Positions 1 through 7,979 of a stretch of DNA of 7,979 nucleotides are shown here, piece after piece. The notes under the pieces were generated by a model, which ran no database searches, was not told the origin of the DNA, and saw only the letters and a program-made list of their open reading frames with translations. The stretch lies in IMG/VR virus record IMGVR_UViG_2751185968_000016. One strand, 5' to 3'. Every line of letters begins with the position of its first letter. Position 1 is the first letter of the stretch. A program made the position numbers and the translations under genes. This DNA comes from a virus. Its lineage: Duplodnaviria > Heunggongvirae > Uroviricota > Caudoviricetes.

Positions 1-1356
1 TCAAATGACCAGTTTTTTCCATTCCTTACCGCGTGCGTCGTTGTAAATATCGGTCATTTTTTGATTCGAATGGCCCAGCAAAATTTTGGTATCAACCCCC
101 TGCTCTCTGAACAATCGCTCTGATAAAGATCTCTGCTCATGGAAAGAGGGTGGGGTGCCATTAGCACGCCAGTTGTAATCCACAGAATCCCGGGCTTTTT
201 TAAATGCAACGGTTAATGTTGCTGGCTTAACCATCCCGCCGCGCTTAGCTGTCCCTTTCGCGTGATGGTGGTGCAATAGCCACGGACTAAGAACGCAATC
301 GCGGCAGGATGACACCACATCATCTAGGGTGAGATTTAATTTATCGCAACGCAGAGCCAGAGGGATGGCAATCCGGGTTCCTGTTTTTTGCTGTTCGACA
401 TGAAGATAACCATCCCGGATATCCGAAAATTGCATTTTGCAAATATCTGAAAGGCGCTGGCCTGTCATCAGTGCCAGCAGCATACCGCGCTGTAAAAAGT
501 AACCATCCTTTTCCGCTGCGTTATAAATCATCATCCACTCATCAAAAGTCAGTCGCTGTCTTGATATCCGCACCTGCGGTTTTTTTGCCGATTCTGCAGG
601 GTTAAAGCCTGGCGGGACATCGCCCGTTTGCTGAGCTTCCCGGAAAACATCGATCAGTACCTTCCTGAAAATTTGTCCCATTCTGTTATGTCCTCTGGCC
701 TTGTACTCTTCCAGTACTGATACCACATCTTTTACGGTTATGGCATCTAACGGTCTGGTGCCAAAACGTTCATCAAATACCCTGAGAGGGGCCGCTTTCT
801 GTTTCAGCGTGTTGAGTTTGATCTCGCCGTTTTCATATCTTTCCTGTTGAATTTTTCTGTAATTATTCAGAAAAATGGTAACGGTTGATGAACCGCCGGT
901 ATCACTAATAATTTTCTCCTGCAGACTGAGCATTTGTTCCATTTGCTGCCGGGCAAGACGGCTGTTCGCTTCTGCTGCAATAGTTTCTGCCAGTTTCTGG
1001 TCAATACTGCCGAGACCGTGATTTTTGCCTGTTATGGGATGCCTGTAACGCCAGTAAACTTTGTTATTTCTTTTGTCAAAATACGGAGATAATCCCGGAA
1101 CATTGGTTTTATATTTTCGCGGCGCGCCATCTTCCAGTATCCTCTTCAAAGCAGGGTGATCTGTGGCGATCACCTCCGGCTTGTTTACCATTCCGACAAA
1201 GCGAGCTTGCGGATCCACTCGCCAGCGTCTTCCAACTTTTTTGGGGAGAGGAAATATCATTCCGGCTTTAGCGTATTTACTTAACGTACTCGGAGTTGGG
1301 ACCGGTTCACTGAATTCCTCTTTTGCCCACTCAGTGAGCAGAATAAGTCTTGCCAT
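1..1356 (-). CDS. int: Tyrosine recombinase (lambda Int-like integrase), 451 aa, with an in-frame N-terminal excisionase-like HTH segment
   Basis: Complete ORF; the minus-strand stop is at 1-3. Segments align to lambda Int from memory: VYWRYRHPITGKNHGLG, RLTFDEWMMIYNAAE, MTGQRLSDICKMQFSDIRDGYLHVEQQKTGTRIAIPLAL, PPSFHEQRSLSERL, LLGHSNQKMTDIYNDARGKEWKKLVI. Catalytic R, K, H-x-x-R, H and Y positions are all present. The first ~55 residues (LTEWAKEE...GMIFPLPKKVGRRWRVDPQARF) look like an Xis/AlpA-type HTH. Weak Shine-Dalgarno. Confidence 0.9.
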   Translation of the reverse strand: MARLILLTEWAKEEFSEPVPTPSTLSKYAKAGMIFPLPKKVGRRWRVDPQARFVGMVNKPEVIATDHPALKRILEDGAPRKYKTNVPGLSPYFDKRNNKVYWRYRHPITGKNHGLGSIDQKLAETIAAEANSRLARQQMEQMLSLQEKIISDTGGSSTVTIFLNNYRKIQQERYENGEIKLNTLKQKAAPLRVFDERFGTRPLDAITVKDVVSVLEEYKARGHNRMGQIFRKVLIDVFREAQQTGDVPPGFNPAESAKKPQVRISRQRLTFDEWMMIYNAAEKDGYFLQRGMLLALMTGQRLSDICKMQFSDIRDGYLHVEQQKTGTRIAIPLALRCDKLNLTLDDVVSSCRDCVLSPWLLHHHHAKGTAKRGGMVKPATLTVAFKKARDSVDYNWRANGTPPSFHEQRSLSERLFREQGVDTKILLGHSNQKMTDIYNDARGKEWKKLVI

Positions 1357-1420: not shown

Positions 1421-3892
1421 TTAAAAATCAGCCTGATTCGGGATCAGTTTTTGCCAGATAACTGAAACGTATTTTGCCTGGTAACGGGCGTCATCAAGTG
1501 CATTATGGCGCTCACCTTCGAATGGAATAGCCGTTCTGGCATCGAAGTCTATGGCTTTCCCCAGCTCAACGATTGTGCGTACATCGCGATCGTTGTAGTA
1601 ACGCCACGGGCAGGGGATCCCCTGCCGTTCGTATGAACGGCGCAAAATCGTGTTGTCGAAGTTGGCTCCATTTCCCCAGACCTGAACAAAAAATTCACCG
1701 GAGTTTTCGTCGATAAATTCCCGCAATTGTAACAGTGCATCATCTAACGGGATTTCATCGGTCATAATGGCAGACTGCGCTTCACGTGATTGCTTCAGCC
1801 ACCTTTTAATGACGTCACGATCAATGACTCCGCCAGCAGTTTCCAGATCGATAGTCTTACTAAATTCCGGTCCCATATCTCCGGTTTGCGGATCGAAAAA
1901 TATTGCACCTATTGAGATAATCGGGGCATCAGGATTTTTTCCCATGGTTTCAAGGTCGATCATTAGATGGTCACACGTCCTGCTGGTGGATGTGATAACG
2001 TGATGACCGTTCATCGTAATTAAGGGATCTGCCGTCTCGCCAGTTTCACTATCGCTGGCGTGATCCTGAGCGCTACCAGCATTCTCCTTGTGTGGATGTT
2101 CAGCGCCTTCCATTTCCTTCGGATCATTTTCCTGAACTTCAACCTGATTCTCTTCATCGAATGTTTCCTGGTATGTTGCGTCACCCATCACCGCGCCACA
2201 ATCAGGGCAGTTGCCGCCACCGCTTTGACCGCAGGCGGTGCAGACTTTTTCCGGTTCCTGTTGCGCTACTGGCTCAGGTTGTTTCGTTTCTGGCTCGTTT
2301 TGTTGCGTATTTGGGCTGTTTTGTTCCGCTTTCTGGTCGTTCTGTTCCGATTCTTGCTGGTTCTGGTTTACAGAATCGCGGGTTTCAATCCCCTTTACCC
2401 ATTTCGGATCATTCGGGTCGCTAATCCCTGCAACAAATTCTCCGCGAGAGGCAGCAAGCAACTTATCGGCGTCAGGCTGGCTGATATTGGCTGCCTGCAT
2501 AATTTTGTTTACTTCGTCAGCGGTAACTTTTACCGGCTCTGGTTGTGCGGTCGTGTCAGATGCACCAGTATTTTGTTGTGAACCTGAGTACGTGCCGTTT
2601 TTACGTGCGAAGTATTCCTCTTTTGTGATTTCCGTAGCTCCCAAGGCTAGTGCTTTTTCCAGACCAGAAAGTTTGTTTGCGCGACCGTATTTTTCGCCAT
2701 CCTTGTCGGTGAAGAGGAAGTAGAACGGCCCCTCACGCTCTACAGATGGTTCGACTTCCACTTTGCATTCGGTTTTTTCGTTGCCCGGAATTGCCGTTTC
2801 CACTGCATCAGTTTCTGGTACTGGCGACGAGAGAGTATCAGTTGCGCTCTGATTTCTTCCTTCATCTTCAAACACGCCCTTTGTAGTCAGGTATTCAGTA
2901 ATGTATTTGTTCAGTGCCACAGGGTCTTTGTGAATGTCGATCGGACGTTCACGGACAAGGCCAAAAATAGTCTGGCGGTCGTAGCGAAGGGCATCAGGCT
3001 GTTTGCGCATTGATGCCGAGATACGCTTCCAGTCTTCGCGGTCGTTGTCGATAACTTCATTTTTTGCCCAGCGATGGATGCTGCCGTCAATGTTTCCGGC
3101 ATCCACATCACCAGGCCAGAGAGCGTAGGCCAGTTCGTCATCCAGTGTTTTCCATGTCTGCTTGTATTCGCGATGAATGGCAGCAATGACCGGGCTGATT
3201 TTTCCTGTTGAATTTTCACTGTGCTGTTGATTGGTTCTGGCGCGGGCGAGATCAACAACAGACGTGTATTTTCCGGTTTCCTTGCGTTCACCTTCGCGAC
3301 GTTTTTTCCAGATGCGCATCTCTGCCTGAATTTCGGGCCATTTGGCACCAGGCTTACATTTATGCTTAACCCACCCGATGGCATGCAGCTTAAGCTCCGG
3401 ATACATGGCGTTAACTTCTGGCATTTTCATCAACGCTTCAACGATATGTCCGTCGAATGTTGCCATGTCTTCCTGCAACAATTCCTGTGCGCTAATAACC
3501 ATATCAACGGTGATGTTTTCACATGTGTCGAACTTAACCATGACAGCGTTCTGTACTTCAGGGGCCAGCTTGTCAAAAGTGACGTTCATCGGATCGGATT
3601 CAGTCTCAACCGGGACAAAGGAAGCAGACTCCTCATCCCAGCGGTTTTCCTGCATATATTCAGCATCCCAGGAATCGAGGGCAGGGCGGGGTATACCGGG
3701 TTTATCCTCGCAGACAAGAAATTTATAAGCGCAGTCCTGAGCAGCCGGATAATGCTCCAGGAATTGCCAGTGAAATTTTGCGCGGGCGCGACGTTCATCA
3801 CCGGCTTCAATGGCTGTGGCTACAGCGACGGCACCTTCTTCCTTTATTGCCTGTTCGTCCGGAATGGCGGCGCAAATAAAGACTTTACTCAT
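1421..3892 (-). CDS. Large multidomain exonuclease-domain protein, 823 aa: YdfE-like N-terminal region, Q/E/N/P heptad linker, 4-Cys zinc ribbon, C-terminal DEDDh (DnaQ/RNase T-like) 3'-5' exonuclease
   Basis: Long ORF with GAGGT Shine-Dalgarno 7 nt upstream of the ATG at 3890-3892. C-terminal domain (residues ~640-815, nt ~1448-1975) has Exo I HLMIDLETMG, Exo II VWGNGANFDNTIL and Exo III HNALDDARYQAKY (H-x4-D), the DEDDh signature. Zinc ribbon CTACGQSGGGNCPDCG at residues 551-566 (nt 2195-2242). N-terminal ~330 residues resemble the K-12 Qin YdfE fragment as I recall it. The central segment KLLAASRGEFVAGISDPNDPKWVKGIETRD...CPDCGAVMGDATYQETFDEE resembles, from memory, the region just before the nuclease domain of Rac RecE. 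Confidence 0.85.
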   Translation of the reverse strand: MSKVFICAAIPDEQAIKEEGAVAVATAIEAGDERRARAKFHWQFLEHYPAAQDCAYKFLVCEDKPGIPRPALDSWDAEYMQENRWDEESASFVPVETESDPMNVTFDKLAPEVQNAVMVKFDTCENITVDMVISAQELLQEDMATFDGHIVEALMKMPEVNAMYPELKLHAIGWVKHKCKPGAKWPEIQAEMRIWKKRREGERKETGKYTSVVDLARARTNQQHSENSTGKISPVIAAIHREYKQTWKTLDDELAYALWPGDVDAGNIDGSIHRWAKNEVIDNDREDWKRISASMRKQPDALRYDRQTIFGLVRERPIDIHKDPVALNKYITEYLTTKGVFEDEGRNQSATDTLSSPVPETDAVETAIPGNEKTECKVEVEPSVEREGPFYFLFTDKDGEKYGRANKLSGLEKALALGATEITKEEYFARKNGTYSGSQQNTGASDTTAQPEPVKVTADEVNKIMQAANISQPDADKLLAASRGEFVAGISDPNDPKWVKGIETRDSVNQNQQESEQNDQKAEQNSPNTQQNEPETKQPEPVAQQEPEKVCTACGQSGGGNCPDCGAVMGDATYQETFDEENQVEVQENDPKEMEGAEHPHKENAGSAQDHASDSETGETADPLITMNGHHVITSTSRTCDHLMIDLETMGKNPDAPIISIGAIFFDPQTGDMGPEFSKTIDLETAGGVIDRDVIKRWLKQSREAQSAIMTDEIPLDDALLQLREFIDENSGEFFVQVWGNGANFDNTILRRSYERQGIPCPWRYYNDRDVRTIVELGKAIDFDARTAIPFEGERHNALDDARYQAKYVSVIWQKLIPNQADF

Positions 3893-3984: not shown

Positions 3985-4176
3985 TTAAAGACCTGCCGGG
4001 ATTTCGTTATTATCCTGGTGAATAACTTTATCGACCGGGTAACAGTTACCGGGAATTTTCTGTTCGGTTGCTGCAGTCACACACTCCTGCATTGTCCTGT
4101 GAACACTGACTGCAATATCAACTGGCTCTCCGGAAACAAGAAAAACTGTCAGAACAAGTGCAAATGCTGTATTCAT
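3985..4176 (-). CDS. ydfD: YdfD-like small membrane lysis protein, 63 aa
   Basis: Internal start of track ORF 3985..4230. MNTAFALVLTVFLVSG is a hydrophobic N-terminal segment. Its ATG (4174-4176) overlaps the dicB stop (4173-4175) as ATGA, indicating translational coupling. Length and sequence match what I recall of Qin YdfD. Confidence 0.7.
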   Translation of the reverse strand: MNTAFALVLTVFLVSGEPVDIAVSVHRTMQECVTAATEQKIPGNCYPVDKVIHQDNNEIPAGL

Positions 4177-4361
4177 TGCCAGCATCCTTTTTGTATCGGA
4201 CGTAAACGGGCCAGCATTGAAAGAATGCATATTTTATTTAATAGCTCCCGTTCGTGTTTTCTCTTGTTAATGGCATCTTCAGTAAATACAGGGTTACTGA
4301 TATTGACACCAATTTCAAAACAACCTTCAGACGTATTAACGTTTGGTAATAACGTTTCCAT
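4173..4361 (-). CDS. dicB: DicB cell-division inhibitor (MinC-dependent FtsZ-ring inhibitor), 62 aa
   Basis: Internal Met of track ORF 4173..4466 gives METLLPNVNTSEGCFEIGVNISNPVFTEDAINKRKHERELLNKICILSMLARLRPIQKGCWQ, near-identical to the K-12 DicB sequence as I recall it. It sits directly downstream of DicF, as in Qin. Confidence 0.85.
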   Translation of the reverse strand: METLLPNVNTSEGCFEIGVNISNPVFTEDAINKRKHERELLNKICILSMLARLRPIQKGCWQ

Positions 4362-4526
4362 TATCGCGTCCTCAACAATGAATTTTGTGATGCGGTGCCT
4401 GGTGCCTCCAGGTGACGTTAACCAGTTAACAATTAACGCCGGATACAGAGAATCCACCCATAACACTGTTTTTGGTTTTAACTGTTCCGCGTGCGCTCAG
4501 CCGCATTCACCACATCACAAAATTCA

Positions 4527-4573
4527 CTTTAAAAAGGGCGGCAGAGCAGTCACGGAGTAAAACTGATACCGCC
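4527..4573 (-). terminator. Rho-independent terminator forming the DicF 3' end
   Basis: GC-rich imperfect stem (GGCGG...CUG/CAG...CCGCC within the DicF 3' half) followed by a U-tract (minus-strand TTTTT at plus 4531-4535). Confidence 0.5.
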
Positions 4574-4588
4574 AAACGTCACCAGAAA
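4536..4588 (-). ncRNA. dicF: DicF small regulatory RNA (Hfq-dependent antisense regulator of ftsZ and other targets)
   Basis: Reverse complement of 4536-4588 reads TTTCTGGTGACGTTTGGCGGTATCAGTTTTACTCCGTGACTGCTCTGCCGCCC, which matches the 53-nt DicF sequence as I remember it. It is followed on the minus strand by a TTTTTAAAG U-tract and lies between the ydfC-like and dicB genes. Confidence 0.85.
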
Positions 4589-4929: not shown

Positions 4930-5148
4930 TTAACGCGGGTATGTAATCATTCTGGCAATGCTTAATGCCGCTGCTTTTTCCAGATTAGTGATATCCTGCT
5001 CCAGAGCGGACAGATTTTCAGCCTGCTTAGCCCTGGCTTCATTGGCCCATTTCAGATCCTGCGCTGCATTAATTTTCTGGTGCATCCACTCATAAAGTTC
5101 ATCATCGGTATAGTCTGGCGCGATGATGACGGGTTCTCGTTTCTGCAT
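4930..5148 (-). CDS. ydfC: YdfC-like small protein, 72 aa, function unknown
   Basis: Track ORF with GAGGAA Shine-Dalgarno upstream of the ATG at 5146-5148. Its size and position (third small ORF after the repressor, upstream of DicF) match Qin ydfC. Predicted helical and charged. Confidence 0.65.
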   Translation of the reverse strand: MQKREPVIIAPDYTDDELYEWMHQKINAAQDLKWANEARAKQAENLSALEQDITNLEKAAALSIARMITYPR

Positions 5149-5177
5149 ACTGATTCCTCGCGGTGCTGCTTCGCTTA

Positions 5178-5306
5178 TCAGCCGTTAGATTTTGCCGAGC
5201 TGGAAAGCGCCTGTTTAAACTCACTGAAGCTGAGAGCTTCTTCGCCTTCGGCAAGGCCTTCGAAGTATTCTTCGTAAGCCTTTTCCATGATTGTGTCGAA
5301 ATCCAT
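5178..5306 (-). CDS. ydfB: YdfB-like tiny acidic protein, 42 aa (MDFDTIMEKAYEEYFEGLAEGEEALSFSEFKQALSSSAKSNG)
   Basis: Hand-translated from the minus strand; not in the ORF track because of its length. AGGTGA Shine-Dalgarno upstream. Its start lies 2 nt after the ydfA-like stop (TGA-T-ATG). Stop is tca at 5178-5180. Confidence 0.55.
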   Translation of the reverse strand: MDFDTIMEKAYEEYFEGLAEGEEALSFSEFKQALSSSAKSNG

Positions 5307-5307
5307 A

Positions 5308-5463
5308 TCACTCACCTGAGTTTCTTTCCAGCCAGCGACGGGCACCATTTTCGGTTTTAAACGTTTTGCTTTTGGTATACGTCATTGCGGTGAACGTGCC
5401 GTCCTGGTTTGGAAACACGCCGTACACCAGAGATTCGTTGTTGCCAAGATCGATAGTATCCAT
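5308..5463 (-). CDS. ydfA: YdfA-like small protein, 51 aa (MDTIDLGNNESLVYGVFPNQDGTFTAMTYTKSKTFKTENGARRWLERNSGE)
   Basis: Internal Met of track ORF 5308..5619, with GAGGT Shine-Dalgarno 5 nt upstream of the ATG at 5461-5463. First gene downstream of the putative pL-like promoter. Confidence 0.6.
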   Translation of the reverse strand: MDTIDLGNNESLVYGVFPNQDGTFTAMTYTKSKTFKTENGARRWLERNSGE

Positions 5464-5539
5464 GCTGACCTCATTTCCCCTTAACGCCGGGGTAGCGGAA
5501 CTGTTTGCGGAGAACACCGTGCGGTGTGTTGATGGAGGT

Positions 5540-5568
5540 AATTTAGTTTTCTCATTATTTTTCGTCAA
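5540..5568 (-). promoter_or_regulatory. Candidate sigma70 promoter of the leftward ydfA-dicF-dicB operon (pL analogue)
   Basis: On the minus strand: -35 TTGACG (plus 5563-5568), 17-nt spacer, -10 TAAATT (plus 5540-5545). Flanked by operator-like inverted repeats. Confidence 0.35.
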
Positions 5569-5590
5569 GGTTTTTTGATGAGAAAACTCA
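5543..5590. promoter_or_regulatory. Two operator-like inverted repeats (TGAG-N4-CTCA type) flanking the -35 of the leftward promoter
   Basis: TGAGAAAACTCA at 5579-5590 and a degenerate inverted copy TTAGTTTTCTCA at 5543-5554, centres ~36 bp apart. The same 12-mer recurs at 6115-6126 in the repressor/cro intergenic region. Confidence 0.4.
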
Positions 5591-5655
5591 AGTGCTGGCG
5601 CAAGATAAAGCCAATACATTGAAATGTAAGGCTTTAAAATTTTGTGAAGGGATGA

Positions 5656-6063
5656 TTATTGATGCTTGTTGCGTTTGCGAGCCTCTAATAGCTCGGTGAA
5701 CAGGCGATTAAAATTCTCAACGCGGGCGCGGAGTTCGCTGAGTTGTGCTTGTTGCTCTGATTTAGGAAGTGCGCGATACAAACGCAGCATCTCTAACTCA
5801 TCTTCCGATAAGTCTAGGGTACTATCGAGTGAAACAGGGGGAGCTGGTGTTTTGTCCTCGTCGCCAAACAGTATCCAGGTTGGTGAACATTGCAATACCT
5901 CGGCGAGGCGATGCAAATTTTGCCCGCGCGGGGCTGTATGGTCACTTTCCCATAATGAAATTGATGAGCCAGATACGCCAGCAGCTTTGCTTAAACCGTT
6001 TTGACTTAAGCCTACCTGCTTACGTCTTTCTCTAATGCGTTGACCTAAAGTTTTCTCGTTCAT
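5656..6063 (-). CDS. dicA: DicA-like XRE-family HTH repressor (CI/C2 analogue), 135 aa
   Basis: Internal start MNEKTLGQRIRERRKQVGLSQNGLSKAAGVSGSSISLWE... gives 135 aa, the DicA length. Classic HTH_XRE pattern and a conserved LQCSPTWILFGDED segment. Divergent from the Cro-like gene. The track's 152-aa form is an upstream extension. Confidence 0.8.
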   Translation of the reverse strand: MNEKTLGQRIRERRKQVGLSQNGLSKAAGVSGSSISLWESDHTAPRGQNLHRLAEVLQCSPTWILFGDEDKTPAPPVSLDSTLDLSEDELEMLRLYRALPKSEQQAQLSELRARVENFNRLFTELLEARKRNKHQ

Positions 6064-6084
6064 ATTTAGATATCTTAATAATCC

Positions 6085-6128
6085 TTGACTTGAGATTCCT
6101 TGAGTGATTAGCATTGAGAAAACTCAAT
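6085..6128 (+). promoter_or_regulatory. Candidate rightward promoter (pR analogue) with overlapping operator
   Basis: -35 TTGACT (6085-6090), 18-nt spacer, -10 TAGCAT (6109-6114). Inverted repeat TTGAGAAAACTCAA (6114-6127) lies immediately downstream. Further TTGAG half-sites at 6090-6094 and 6100-6104. Confidence 0.4.
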
Positions 6129-6368: not shown

Positions 6369-6873
6369 ACAGGCTCGTGAGGCTCTGGATGCCTGGATAT
6401 GTCGACCAGGAATGACACAGGAGCAGGCGACGATATTAATCACTGAAGCATTCTGGGCTTTGAAAGAGCGCCCGAACATCGATGTTCAGCGTGTCACAGA
6501 TGAAGGTGGCGCGGTTGATCAGCGAGCGCTTGGCGTTAATCGAGTGAAGATATTCGAACGCTGGAAGGCTATCGACACCAGGGATAAGCGTGAAAAGTTC
6601 ACGGCGCTAGTGCCTGCAATTATGGAGGCTATCCGGATTAATGATTTCAGGTTGTATCGTGAAATTAGTGACGGAAAAAGCATCACGTACATGATCGCCG
6701 GGTTAAACAAAGAATATGGCGATGTGGTGGAGTCCGGACTGCTTTTTGCTGATCCTGCCGTAGTGGATCGTGAAACTGACGAACTTATAGAAAAAGCAAT
6801 TGCTTTCAAACTTGCGTATCGACAGCAATACCAACAAAAAGCTGGATGGAATTATGAGCCTTCTTTTTGCTGA
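6352..6873 (+). CDS. YdaT-like protein, 173 aa (CII-position regulator; sometimes annotated as a toxin)
   Basis: Overlaps the Cro-like stop by 17 nt. ERWKAIDTRDKREKFTALVPAIMEAI resembles the Rac YdaT core as I recall it. Sits at the cII position of lambdoid maps. Confidence 0.7.
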   Translation: MKITPEQAREALDAWICRPGMTQEQATILITEAFWALKERPNIDVQRVTDEGGAVDQRALGVNRVKIFERWKAIDTRDKREKFTALVPAIMEAIRINDFRLYREISDGKSITYMIAGLNKEYGDVVESGLLFADPAVVDRETDELIEKAIAFKLAYRQQYQQKAGWNYEPSFC

Positions 6874-7631
6874 ACGCCCACTGGTTATAAACACACAGCT
6901 TGCGATGAAGATTGGCTTAAATGAAGCCATTGTGTTGCAGCAGTTGCATTACTGGTTGAGAGATACCAATTCCGGCATGGAATGTGATGGTGTTCGCTGG
7001 ATTTACAACACAACGGAACAATGGCTGGAACAGTTCCCATTCTGGTCAGAGTCAACGTTAAAGCGCGCGTTTGCAAGTCTGAAAACGCTGGGGCTCTTGC
7101 GTTGTGAAAAGCTCAATAAATCAAAGCGCGATATGACCAATTTCTACACGATTAACTATGGGAGCGAGCTTTTAGATGATGGCAAATTGAGCGAATCCAT
7201 CGGTTCAAAATGCGCCGCTCCATCAGGTCAAAATGACACGATGGAAGAGGTCAAAATGAAACGCTCCATTGGTTCAAAACGACCCAATGTCATCGGGTCA
7301 AAATGGCCCGATGATCCTACAGAGAATACAACAGAGATTACTACAGAGAATAAAAACACTTTTCGTCCGGAAGCTTCGCAACCGGACCCGCAGACGGCTG
7401 AACAGGATTTTTTAATCCGGCACCCTGGCGCAGTTGTGTTTAGTGCGAAAAAACGCCAGTGGGGTAGCCAGGAGGATCTGGCGTGTGCGCAGTGGATATG
7501 GGGGCGGATCGTGGGTCTCTACGAACAGGCCGCCAGTGATGATGGCGAGATCATGCGACCAAAAGAGCCTAACTGGACTGTCTGGGCCAATGATGTGCGC
7601 ACAATGCGGATGCTGGATGGCAGAAGCCACA
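6854..7631 (+). pseudogene. Replication initiator (lambda O-like replisome organizer), C-terminally truncated by IS insertion
   Basis: The N-terminal domain FAERPLVINTQLAMKIGLNEAIVLQQLHYWL...TLKRAFASLKTLGLL is typical of phage O-type initiators. Iterons lie inside the gene. Homology-independent break at 7631/7632, where an IS terminal inverted repeat begins; the remaining track translation to 7792 is read-through into the IS. Confidence 0.6.
7195..7306. repeat. Five direct iterons (consensus about CATCGGTCAAAATG) at 23-24 bp spacing: candidate prophage replication origin
   Basis: TCAAAA cores at 7205, 7228, 7251, 7274 and 7298. Followed by an A-rich segment with a duplicated TACAGAGAATA (7318-7353). 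Embedded in the O-like gene, as lambda ori is in O. Confidence 0.6.
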
Positions 7632-7671
7632 TGAACCGCTCCGGGTTTCCTGGAGAGTGTTTTATCTGTGA
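7632..7671. repeat. Terminal inverted repeat of the IS3-family element
   Basis: TGAACCGCTCCGGGTTTCCTGGAGAG... begins with the 5'-TG characteristic of IS3-family ends and resembles the IS629/IS1203 end sequence as I recall it. Confidence 0.5.
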
Positions 7672-7673
7672 AC

Positions 7674-7979
7674 TCAGGCTGCCAGATCATCGTTTCCGAT
7701 GGAAGCATAATAAGCTTTTTCTGCTTCTGCCGGAGGGATGTGGCCCAGCCTTTCCAGCAATCGTCGATTATTATACCAGTCCACCCACGTGAGTGTGGCC
7801 AGTTCCACTTCTGCACGGTTTTTCCAGCTCTTACGGTGTATTACCTCCGCTTTGTAAAGACCATTGATGCTCTCCGCCATCGCGTTGTCATACGAGTCGC
7901 CTGTACTTCCTGTTGATGCCAGTAATCCGGCTTCCTTAAGCCGCTGTGTGTAGGCCAGCGATACATACTGAGAACCTTT
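7674..7979 (-). CDS. IS3-family transposase OrfB, C-terminal 101 aa (5' end outside the window)
   Basis: Minus-strand frame is open from the window end to the stop at 7674-7676: KGSQYVSLAYTQRLKEAGLLASTGSTGDSYDNAMAESINGLYKAEVIH...NNRRLLERLGH..., containing the DDE-domain YDNA..AES block typical of IS3-family OrfB. Confidence 0.85.
   Translation of the reverse strand, partial: KGSQYVSLAYTQRLKEAGLLASTGSTGDSYDNAMAESINGLYKAEVIHRKSWKNRAEVELATLTWVDWYNNRRLLERLGHIPPAEAEKAYYASIGNDDLAA

Follow-up and report, generated by a model that had tools for sequence, protein, structure and literature searches.

What is encoded at the head of an early-left operon that opens with three very small genes instead of an N-like antiterminator? 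The question is raised by three open reading frames (ORFs) on the minus strand, at positions 4930–5463 of a 7,979-nucleotide (nt) stretch of Caudoviricetes DNA (IMG/VR record IMGVR_UViG_2751185968_000016), hereafter called the window. Sequence identity shows that the ORFs correspond to ydfA, ydfB and ydfC, genes of the dicBF operon that already have names and annotations, and they do not represent a discovery. They are among the most widespread E. coli y-genes of unknown function and share a transcript with DicF and DicB, both of which are well studied. The best explanation overall, which we hold tentatively and with somewhat less than even confidence, is that these known protein genes head a repressor-controlled early-left operon and encode accessory proteins acting against host or defence components. 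The ORFs themselves are ordinary. The novel part is a modest and testable link, made through domain fusions, between YdfA and anti-restriction proteins of the Dar and ArdC types.

The lengths of 51, 42 and 72 amino acids and the coordinates given in the initial annotation were exact. The product of ydfA (5308..5463, minus strand; 51 amino acids) matched DUF1391 (PF07151) with 98.5 bits against a cut-off of 27.3, over model positions 1–48 of 48, and also phrog_751 (1.3e-36). The product of ydfB (5178..5306, minus strand; 42 amino acids) matched phrog_2061 (1.3e-27) and was identical to the RefSeq entry 'protein YdfB' (WP_000344964.1), and that of ydfC (4930..5148, minus strand; 72 amino acids) matched phrog_1744 (1e-39). 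The PHROGs families of all three proteins are of unknown function. Compared with the K-12-type locus, YdfA was 100% identical, YdfB 100% identical over its 42 amino acids and YdfC 99% identical, with ydfB positioned between ydfA and ydfC, and ydfC between ydfB and dicF. The DicF RNA, dicB and ydfD, which mark the dicBF operon, were all found downstream on the same strand. A prophage adjoining ompW in E. coli strain B-1109 showed 99.9% identity to the window over 2.25 kb and 99.2% over 7.6 kb, and its corresponding ORFs are labelled ydfC, ydfB and DUF1391 family protein in RefSeq. The ORF track had indeed missed the 42-amino-acid frame, as the mechanically called ORF is 56 amino acids long; this is a mere length-threshold effect, and the 42-amino-acid YdfB is present in RefSeq.

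The start sites were assessed by the pairing energy of the upstream sequence to the 3' end of 16S rRNA, with 356 start-like codons on the minus strand as background (median –2.3 kcal/mol). The Shine-Dalgarno energies were –6.8 kcal/mol for ydfA, –8.4 kcal/mol for ydfB and –5.9 kcal/mol for ydfC, which places them in the top 6.5%, 3.1% and 11% and bears out the earlier description of a good Shine-Dalgarno sequence for each gene. The in-frame upstream ATG codons at 5619 and 5348, from which the mechanical ORFs of 103 and 56 amino acids start, gave –0.1 and +0.7 kcal/mol and lack a Shine-Dalgarno sequence. Longer forms of YdfA in the databases (78–103 amino acids) were not retained either, since their upstream starts have no Shine-Dalgarno sequence and lie, in the window, at or upstream of the predicted promoter. 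The stop codon of ydfA is separated from the ATG of ydfB by 1 nt, and the ydfB Shine-Dalgarno sequence AGGTGA lies within the last codons of ydfA; by this arrangement, ydfA and ydfB are translationally coupled. The initial annotation had called all three ORFs tightly coupled, which holds for this pair and not for ydfB and ydfC, which are 29 nt apart.

Constraint at the protein level had been set beforehand as a refutation test for the three ORFs, and it was observed. Using distinct homologous sequences from 110 loci and Nei-Gojobori counts pooled over pairs, a crude measure in which the pairs are non-independent, the ratio of non-synonymous to synonymous differences (pN/pS) in the annotated frame was 0.23 for ydfA, 0.36 for ydfB and 0.55 for ydfC, similar to dicB (0.44) and ydfD (0.38). 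For each of ydfA, ydfB and ydfC, the annotated frame had the lowest ratio among the six frames. The four frames that do not share the annotated third codon position had ratios of approximately 0.9–2.4, and the antisense frame that does share it had ratios of 0.37–0.61. Within YdfB, the ratio was 0.21 for the core (residues 1–34) and 0.95 for the tail, and within YdfC it was 0.20 for residues 1–22 and 0.64 for the helical residues 23–72. By this substitution pattern, ydfA, ydfB and ydfC are real protein genes under purifying selection.

The genes are also widely distributed. Among 5426 complete E. coli genomes, 2311 (43%) had a coverage of the ydfABC cassette of at least 80%, which, together with the K-12-type locus, agrees with the claimed conservation of the ORFs next to dicF and dicB. 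Part or all of the cassette, often in several copies, was present in 4001 of the 5426 genomes (about three quarters). It was likewise present in the sequenced phages Tritos, PhiR42_1 and vB_EcoM-606R7. Phage HannyBb has ydfA followed by a truncated or chimeric ydfB, and phage Evi has ydfC alone, adjoining kil. In prophages of Citrobacter and Cronobacter, ydfB occurs alone as the first gene after the repressor, and in Serratia phage OS31 a DUF1391 gene comes first after a LexA-type cI. From these arrangements, ydfA, ydfB and ydfC shuffle between phages as independent modules. The Rac prophage and other lambdoid phages with DUF1391 genes, such as OS31, resemble the window in that DUF1391 lies downstream of the immunity repressor, where the early-left operon begins. 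In Rac, however, the DUF1391 gene (ydaF) is second, after the unrelated ydaG, which follows racR (locus L013, 3811–4156); sieB, kilR and recE are found downstream instead of dicF and dicB, and both ydfB and ydfC are absent. The YdaG protein of Rac, judged by eye, is presumably a three-helix domain of the UBA or EF-Ts-N type.

We searched the YdfA profile against 1.84 billion representative proteins (E ≤0.001), which yielded 331 relatives, most of them small. A subset of 147 relatives was scanned, all of which contained DUF1391, and 16 of these were 200–1572 amino acids long. The only other Pfam families among the 147 proteins were DarA_N (seven proteins), ArdC-N (two), DUF3560 (two) and ddrB-ParB (one). 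The large proteins additionally matched phrog_1926, 'released from the phage upon host infection', and phrog_7245, 'anti-restriction protein'. The largest, a DarA_N-DUF1391-DdrB-ParB protein of 1572 amino acids, was found, close to a tail gene, on 14 metagenomic contigs ranging up to the 50–200 kb size class; in one of the two contexts examined, on a phage-like contig, the distance between a DUF1391 carrier and a gene for a tail protein was approximately 4.5 kb. YdfA and the embedded domain share about 60% identity, including the LGNNE motif, and the shared domain comprises about 45 residues in the order beta-beta-beta-alpha. In agreement with this order, the AlphaFold2 (AF2) model of YdfA, with a predicted local distance difference test (pLDDT) score of 78, displayed an N-terminal LGNNE motif, conserved although disordered, and behind it three beta strands and a helix. 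Residues N8, N9, E10, K36 and W44 of YdfA are invariant. By these matches, ydfA is a free-standing copy of a module that is also built into large phage anti-restriction ('polyvalent') proteins. Segments resembling YdfB or YdfC were also searched for within polyvalent proteins, and none were found.

The domains of polyvalent proteins have been argued to cooperate as soon as invasion begins, with solo versions doing likewise (Iyer et al. 2017, PMC5512222). DUF1391 is not mentioned in the main text of that paper, and the only mention of 'DUF1391' in the literature searched was unrelated. Compared with the Dar proteins of P1 and the plasmid ArdC proteins covered there, the YdfA domain is one module of such DarA_N, ArdC-N or DdrB-ParB proteins, whereas YdfA itself would be a stand-alone product of 51 amino acids, expressed after entry, and not a packaged multidomain protein. 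Since the domain recurs only with DarA_N, ArdC-N, DUF3560 and DdrB-ParB, we infer that the fusions suggest an immediate-early counter-restriction role for YdfA.

The published expression data provide the setting for such a role. The ydfA mRNA comes from dicBp, a promoter under DicA repression, which the antirepressor Rem relieves, and dicBp switches spontaneously in a subpopulation of cells (Ragunathan et al. 2023, bioRxiv 10.1101/2023.04.14.536235). By this literature, the operon of the window would be silent in the lysogen and transcribed once its DicA-type repressor is relieved, and YdfA, YdfB and YdfC would then be the first proteins made. We propose that they are small accessory proteins directed at host or defence components and not developmental regulators. 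YdfA would most likely bind DNA or a restriction or defence component, thereby aiding the early survival of unmodified phage DNA. YdfB, as a putative acidic helical hairpin, and YdfC, as a conserved acidic-aromatic N-terminal peptide on a long predicted coiled-coil helix, would both most likely work through protein binding. By the published data, all three proteins are non-toxic to the host: induction of the dicBF operon without dicF and dicB leaves growth uninhibited (Balasubramanian et al. 2016, PMC5069750). In the same study, ydfA, ydfB and ydfC are described as lying nearest the promoter and as coding for small proteins without a known function, and their functions are still called unknown in a 2024 preprint and in a preprint dated 2026, so that the genes have rightly been described as uncharacterised from 2016 to 2026.

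Several observations weigh against this proposal. The case for YdfA is one of guilt by domain association. A named partner domain was present in only 9 of the 16 DUF1391 proteins of at least 200 amino acids, and these came from about six sequence clusters. A tblastn search with the polyvalent-type DUF1391 segment returned no P1 record. DUF1391 was rare on plasmids (only 19 records, 18 of them predicted to be non-mobilizable and several chromosome-sized), and the idea of DUF1391 as a plasmid or leading-region gene was dropped on the same grounds. Dar and ArdC act when delivered with the DNA, whereas YdfA would first have to be transcribed and translated. Searches of PADLOC and the PDB gave no informative match for any of the three proteins, and no informative homologue was found for YdfB or YdfC. 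Finally, translation data for ydfABC were not found in the literature texts searched.

A bolder version of the proposal is that YdfA founds an immediate-early counter-restriction or counter-defence family of about 50 residues, as a free-standing module of the Dar and ArdC type, and that the coupled YdfB, and perhaps YdfC, are further inhibitors in an anti-defence cassette of Qin- and Rac-type phages. We regard this version as possible but doubtful. If a counter-defence function is true, it would explain why these genes are placed first after the early-left promoter in lambdoid phages without N, and it would give a role to one module of the Dar- and ArdC-type polyvalent proteins, which are poorly understood. 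It would also be testable at once with standard K-12 tools.

Among the other explanations, the one that survives best is that YdfABC regulate phage development in place of the functions of the lambda PL operon, for example with YdfA as a DNA-binding factor of the AP2 or integrase-arm type in transcription, excision or read-through of the DicF terminator, and with YdfC as a CIII-like protease decoy. As the opening genes behind the early-left promoter, they do stand where N, Ral and CIII would be, and transcription reaches dicB, the exonuclease gene, xis and int only by passing the DicF terminator. As the initial annotation had claimed, an N-like gene is lacking: no N-family protein was found among the ORFs from the repressor to int, all of which were assigned to other families. 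The boxA pattern gave three matches against six expected, none of them inside the operon, and no nut site was found. No arginine-rich motif was present in YdfA, YdfB or YdfC, which are acidic or near neutral. An antitermination RNA of the put or nut kind was considered for the 5' leader and rejected, as the leader folds no better than shuffled sequences (z = +1.0). Rfam searches of the window returned only DicF, a sub-threshold match to STnc100 and a chance-level match to rpsB, and no put-like RNA. The lack of an arginine-rich motif and of nut or put-like RNA argues against the regulator explanation.

In the fold searches with YdfA, none of the matches was significant; the named viral matches with low root-mean-square deviation were HNH endonucleases, and the N-terminal domain of lambda Int was among the weak Foldseek matches, both of which count for the regulator explanation. 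The reading of YdfA as an AP2/ERF or integrase-arm domain was suggested by its geometry but was rejected: hhalign with the YdfA profile gave probabilities of 3.8% against AtERF1 and 0.02% against lambda Int-N, and the Pfam scan of YdfA returned no AP2 or Arm match. The fusion partners of DUF1391 are, moreover, only anti-restriction domains and not regulators. A core developmental role fits poorly because the genes are dispensable modules, with one or two of them missing from many related phages, which suits accessory functions better than core regulators. We therefore consider a regulatory role unlikely.

In respects other than sequence, ydfABC resemble the small proteins of the lambda PL operon (N, Ral, CIII and Kil) and Ocr of T7, which are small, immediate-early, non-essential accessory proteins encoded where the leftward or early transcript begins; type I restriction is countered by Ral and Ocr. 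No similarity to any of these proteins in sequence or family was found in YdfA, YdfB or YdfC.

The initial annotation had put forward another explanation, in which the acidic 42-amino-acid protein YdfB is a DNA mimic, or a charge-mimicry inhibitor of a restriction enzyme or DNA-binding defence protein. Its description as strongly acidic was accurate: YdfB contains 10 aspartate and glutamate residues against 3 lysine and arginine residues, which gives a net charge of –7 and an isoelectric point of 4.05, as in DNA mimics. The sequence suggests two amphipathic segments (approximately residues 1–19 and 24–36) followed by a variable tail. Acidic residues at positions 4, 8, 12, 16 and 20 display an i/i+4 spacing along the first segment, and E12, E20, E22 and E23 are invariant or nearly so. 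The purifying selection on the core and the immediate-early position of the gene, which in the Citrobacter and Cronobacter prophages is the very first, are consistent with this explanation. However, it is argued from composition alone. With six conserved aromatic residues among its 42 amino acids, YdfB looks closer to a packed hairpin of helices, or to a peptide that binds proteins, than to an extended surface resembling DNA, and the mimics Ocr and ArdA are far larger. YdfB gave no match in Pfam, NCBIfam, PADLOC or the PDB, including the known DNA-mimic families, and only function-unknown families in PHROGs; it thus shows no resemblance to known anti-restriction or anti-defence families. The link to anti-restriction appears for YdfA, through its domain fusions, and not for YdfB. 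Taken together, a DNA-mimic role for YdfB seems to us quite improbable.

Two further leads on YdfB came to nothing. An EF-hand-like reading of the segment ALSFSEFKQAL was dropped, as there was no Pfam match. A 205-amino-acid 'YdfB fusion' in phage HannyBb (phrog_35040) turned out to be a chimera formed by recombination after residue 34, with a tail of low complexity, and was uninformative. The ydfB gene appears to be a recombination junction, with several variants running into unrelated sequence after residue 34 (HannyBb locus L004, 5353–5970; P0035 and P0041). In YdfC, the N-terminal peptide MQKREPVIIAPDYTDDELYEWM was almost invariant, and the AF2 model (pLDDT 87) shows one long helix behind it, over residues 15–69. 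NCBIfam searches with YdfC gave only weak matches below the cut-off, and sequence searches of the PDB with YdfA, YdfB and YdfC gave nothing significant.

A third explanation is that ydfABC are 'moron' functions that benefit the lysogen and not the phage, for example through stress tolerance. In an overexpression screen with the ASKA collection, ydfA, ydfB and ydfD were among the candidates for resistance to hydrogen peroxide (H2O2), and ydfB and ydfD among those for hypochlorous acid (HOCl). The cassette is kept in defective prophages in the 43% of complete E. coli genomes noted above, and the neighbouring dicB is described as protecting against phage by blocking ManYZ. The ASKA matches are, however, uncharacterised candidates among 217 genes for H2O2 and 114 genes for HOCl. 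The promoter is repressed in lysogens and derepressed only in a subpopulation or in stressed cells, with urea, high temperature and Rem as derepressing conditions, and the same genes are kept, in immediate-early position, in sequenced and apparently complete phage genomes. A function in the lysogen is, in our view, a faint prospect.

The weakest explanation, by which the ORFs act only in cis, with translation keeping Rho off and stabilising the transcript for DicF and dicB while the peptides are irrelevant, could draw on the lack of N-type antitermination, on the coupling and the good Shine-Dalgarno sites that would hold ribosomes on the first approximately 530 nt, and on the dependence of ydfABC RNA abundance on processing by RNases E and III (bioRxiv 10.1101/2023.04.14.536235), but is very improbable because of the constraint on the amino acid sequences in the annotated frames and the reuse of the confidently folding YdfA domain in unrelated large proteins, and it would leave the 340 nt between ydfC and dicF still untranslated.

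The assignment of the three genes to the head of an early-left operon agreed with the control region, in which an operator-flanked promoter candidate lies between the repressor gene and ydfA, in the same place as dicBp in K-12. This candidate early-left promoter (5540..5568, minus strand) has the –35 element TTGACG at 5568..5563, a 17-nt spacer and the –10 element TAAATT ending at 5540. It is sigma-70-like, with 9 of 12 consensus matches, in a scan that by itself was at chance level (three sites against 2.9 expected). The predicted transcription start is near 5533, approximately 70 nt ahead of the ydfA ATG. A repeat search identified putative inverted operator half-sites at 5542–5555 and 5578–5591, which bracket the –35 element. 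The 13-mer of the half-sites, TGAGAAAACTCAA, recurs at 6115–6127, with an inverted copy at 6049–6057, in the intergenic region between the repressor and cro genes. These 13-mer repeats (5542–5591 and 6049–6128) are likely operators of an immunity type unlike that of K-12 DicA, where binding of the repressor is suggested because of the analogy with the control of dicBp by DicA.

Downstream of the promoter, the leader of ydfA with its ribosome-binding site (GAGG Shine-Dalgarno; 5464..5500, minus strand) is conserved over 37 nt and includes a small CCCC/GGGG hairpin. The leader was identical or nearly so in six prophages with unrelated upstream immunity regions. By this comparison, its invariance marks the left edge of the ydfA module as a sharp mosaic boundary.

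Some database labels for YdfA point elsewhere. Homologues are labelled 'head-DNA stabilization protein D' in several phage records; the only basis found for this label was a 19-residue similarity to the SHP decoration protein of phage 21 (E 0.013), and it is probably a propagated mis-annotation. In PADLOC, YdfA gave only a chance-level match to AbiEi. The gene called 'ydfA' in the IbfA paper was set aside, as the context points to a different, plasmid-borne gene.

The similarity to the B-1109 prophage identifies the window as a piece of an E. coli lambdoid prophage of the Qin type. In minus-strand order, it contains Cro-like and YdaT-family genes in the opposite orientation, a helix-turn-helix (HTH) repressor gene, a 190-nt gap, ydfA, ydfB and ydfC, and then the 340-nt untranslated stretch, DicF, dicB, ydfD, the gene for an 823-amino-acid exonuclease, xis and int. 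The DicA-type repressor (5656..6063, minus strand; 135 amino acids; PF01381 HTH_3) lies directly upstream of the promoter and corresponds to WP_001003382.1 in B-1109. The DicF small RNA (sRNA) with its terminator (4536..4587, minus strand) matched Rfam RF00039 with 76.7 bits against a gathering score of 48. The gene for the cell-division inhibitor DicB (4173..4361, minus strand; 62 amino acids) matched PF05358 with 124.9 bits, and ydfD (3985..4176, minus strand; DUF1482, 63 amino acids) matched PF07358 with 88 bits; like DicF, both belong to the operon of ydfABC.

The Qin prophage of K-12 resembles the window in gene order, in spacing and in the presence of DicF, dicB and ydfD downstream of ydfABC. 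The control logic also looks alike, with a repressor of the DicA type and, between its gene and ydfA, a promoter candidate in the window where K-12 has dicBp, whereas the repressor, Cro and operators of the window appear to be of another immunity type. K-12 covers only 69% of the 2.25-kb query, and the unmatched part is probably the immunity region, because the repressor and Cro of the window carry other names than dicA and dicC, which are annotated there in K-12. The prophages differ further in that DicB of the window is only 87% identical to that of K-12, that the window-type prophage is integrated beside ompW, and that the prophage of the window has a xis-int frameshift and an insertion of an insertion sequence (IS) element.

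The frameshift concerns positions 1–1356 (minus strand), where a single ORF of 451 amino acids contains an excisionase domain together with the Arm-binding and catalytic domains of an integrase. In the B-1109 prophage, xis and int are separate, overlapping genes, and the window is one G short near position 1120. The single ORF reflects either a frameshift that fuses xis and int or a sequencing error. At the other end, homology to B-1109 stops at 7631, and a fragment of an IS3-family transposase (rve_3) is found at 7674–7880 (minus strand), within 7631–7979. The replication-gene ORF at 6800–7792 is interrupted by the IS element, and the prophage is thus crippled and probably defective.

Two other features were noted downstream of ydfC. 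The 823-amino-acid 'exonuclease' (1421–3892, minus strand) is, unlike that of Rac, not of the RecE-type Exonuc_VIII family; its C-terminal part (residues 642–813) is an Rv2179c-like 3'-5' exoribonuclease domain, which is preceded by a long acidic low-complexity region that includes a cysteine-rich CxxC...CxxC segment. The sub-threshold Rfam match to the Salmonella sRNA STnc100 (4329–4538, minus strand; 38.7 bits against a gathering score of 47, E 1.5e-6) covers a stretch located directly 3' of DicF and extending into the start of dicB.

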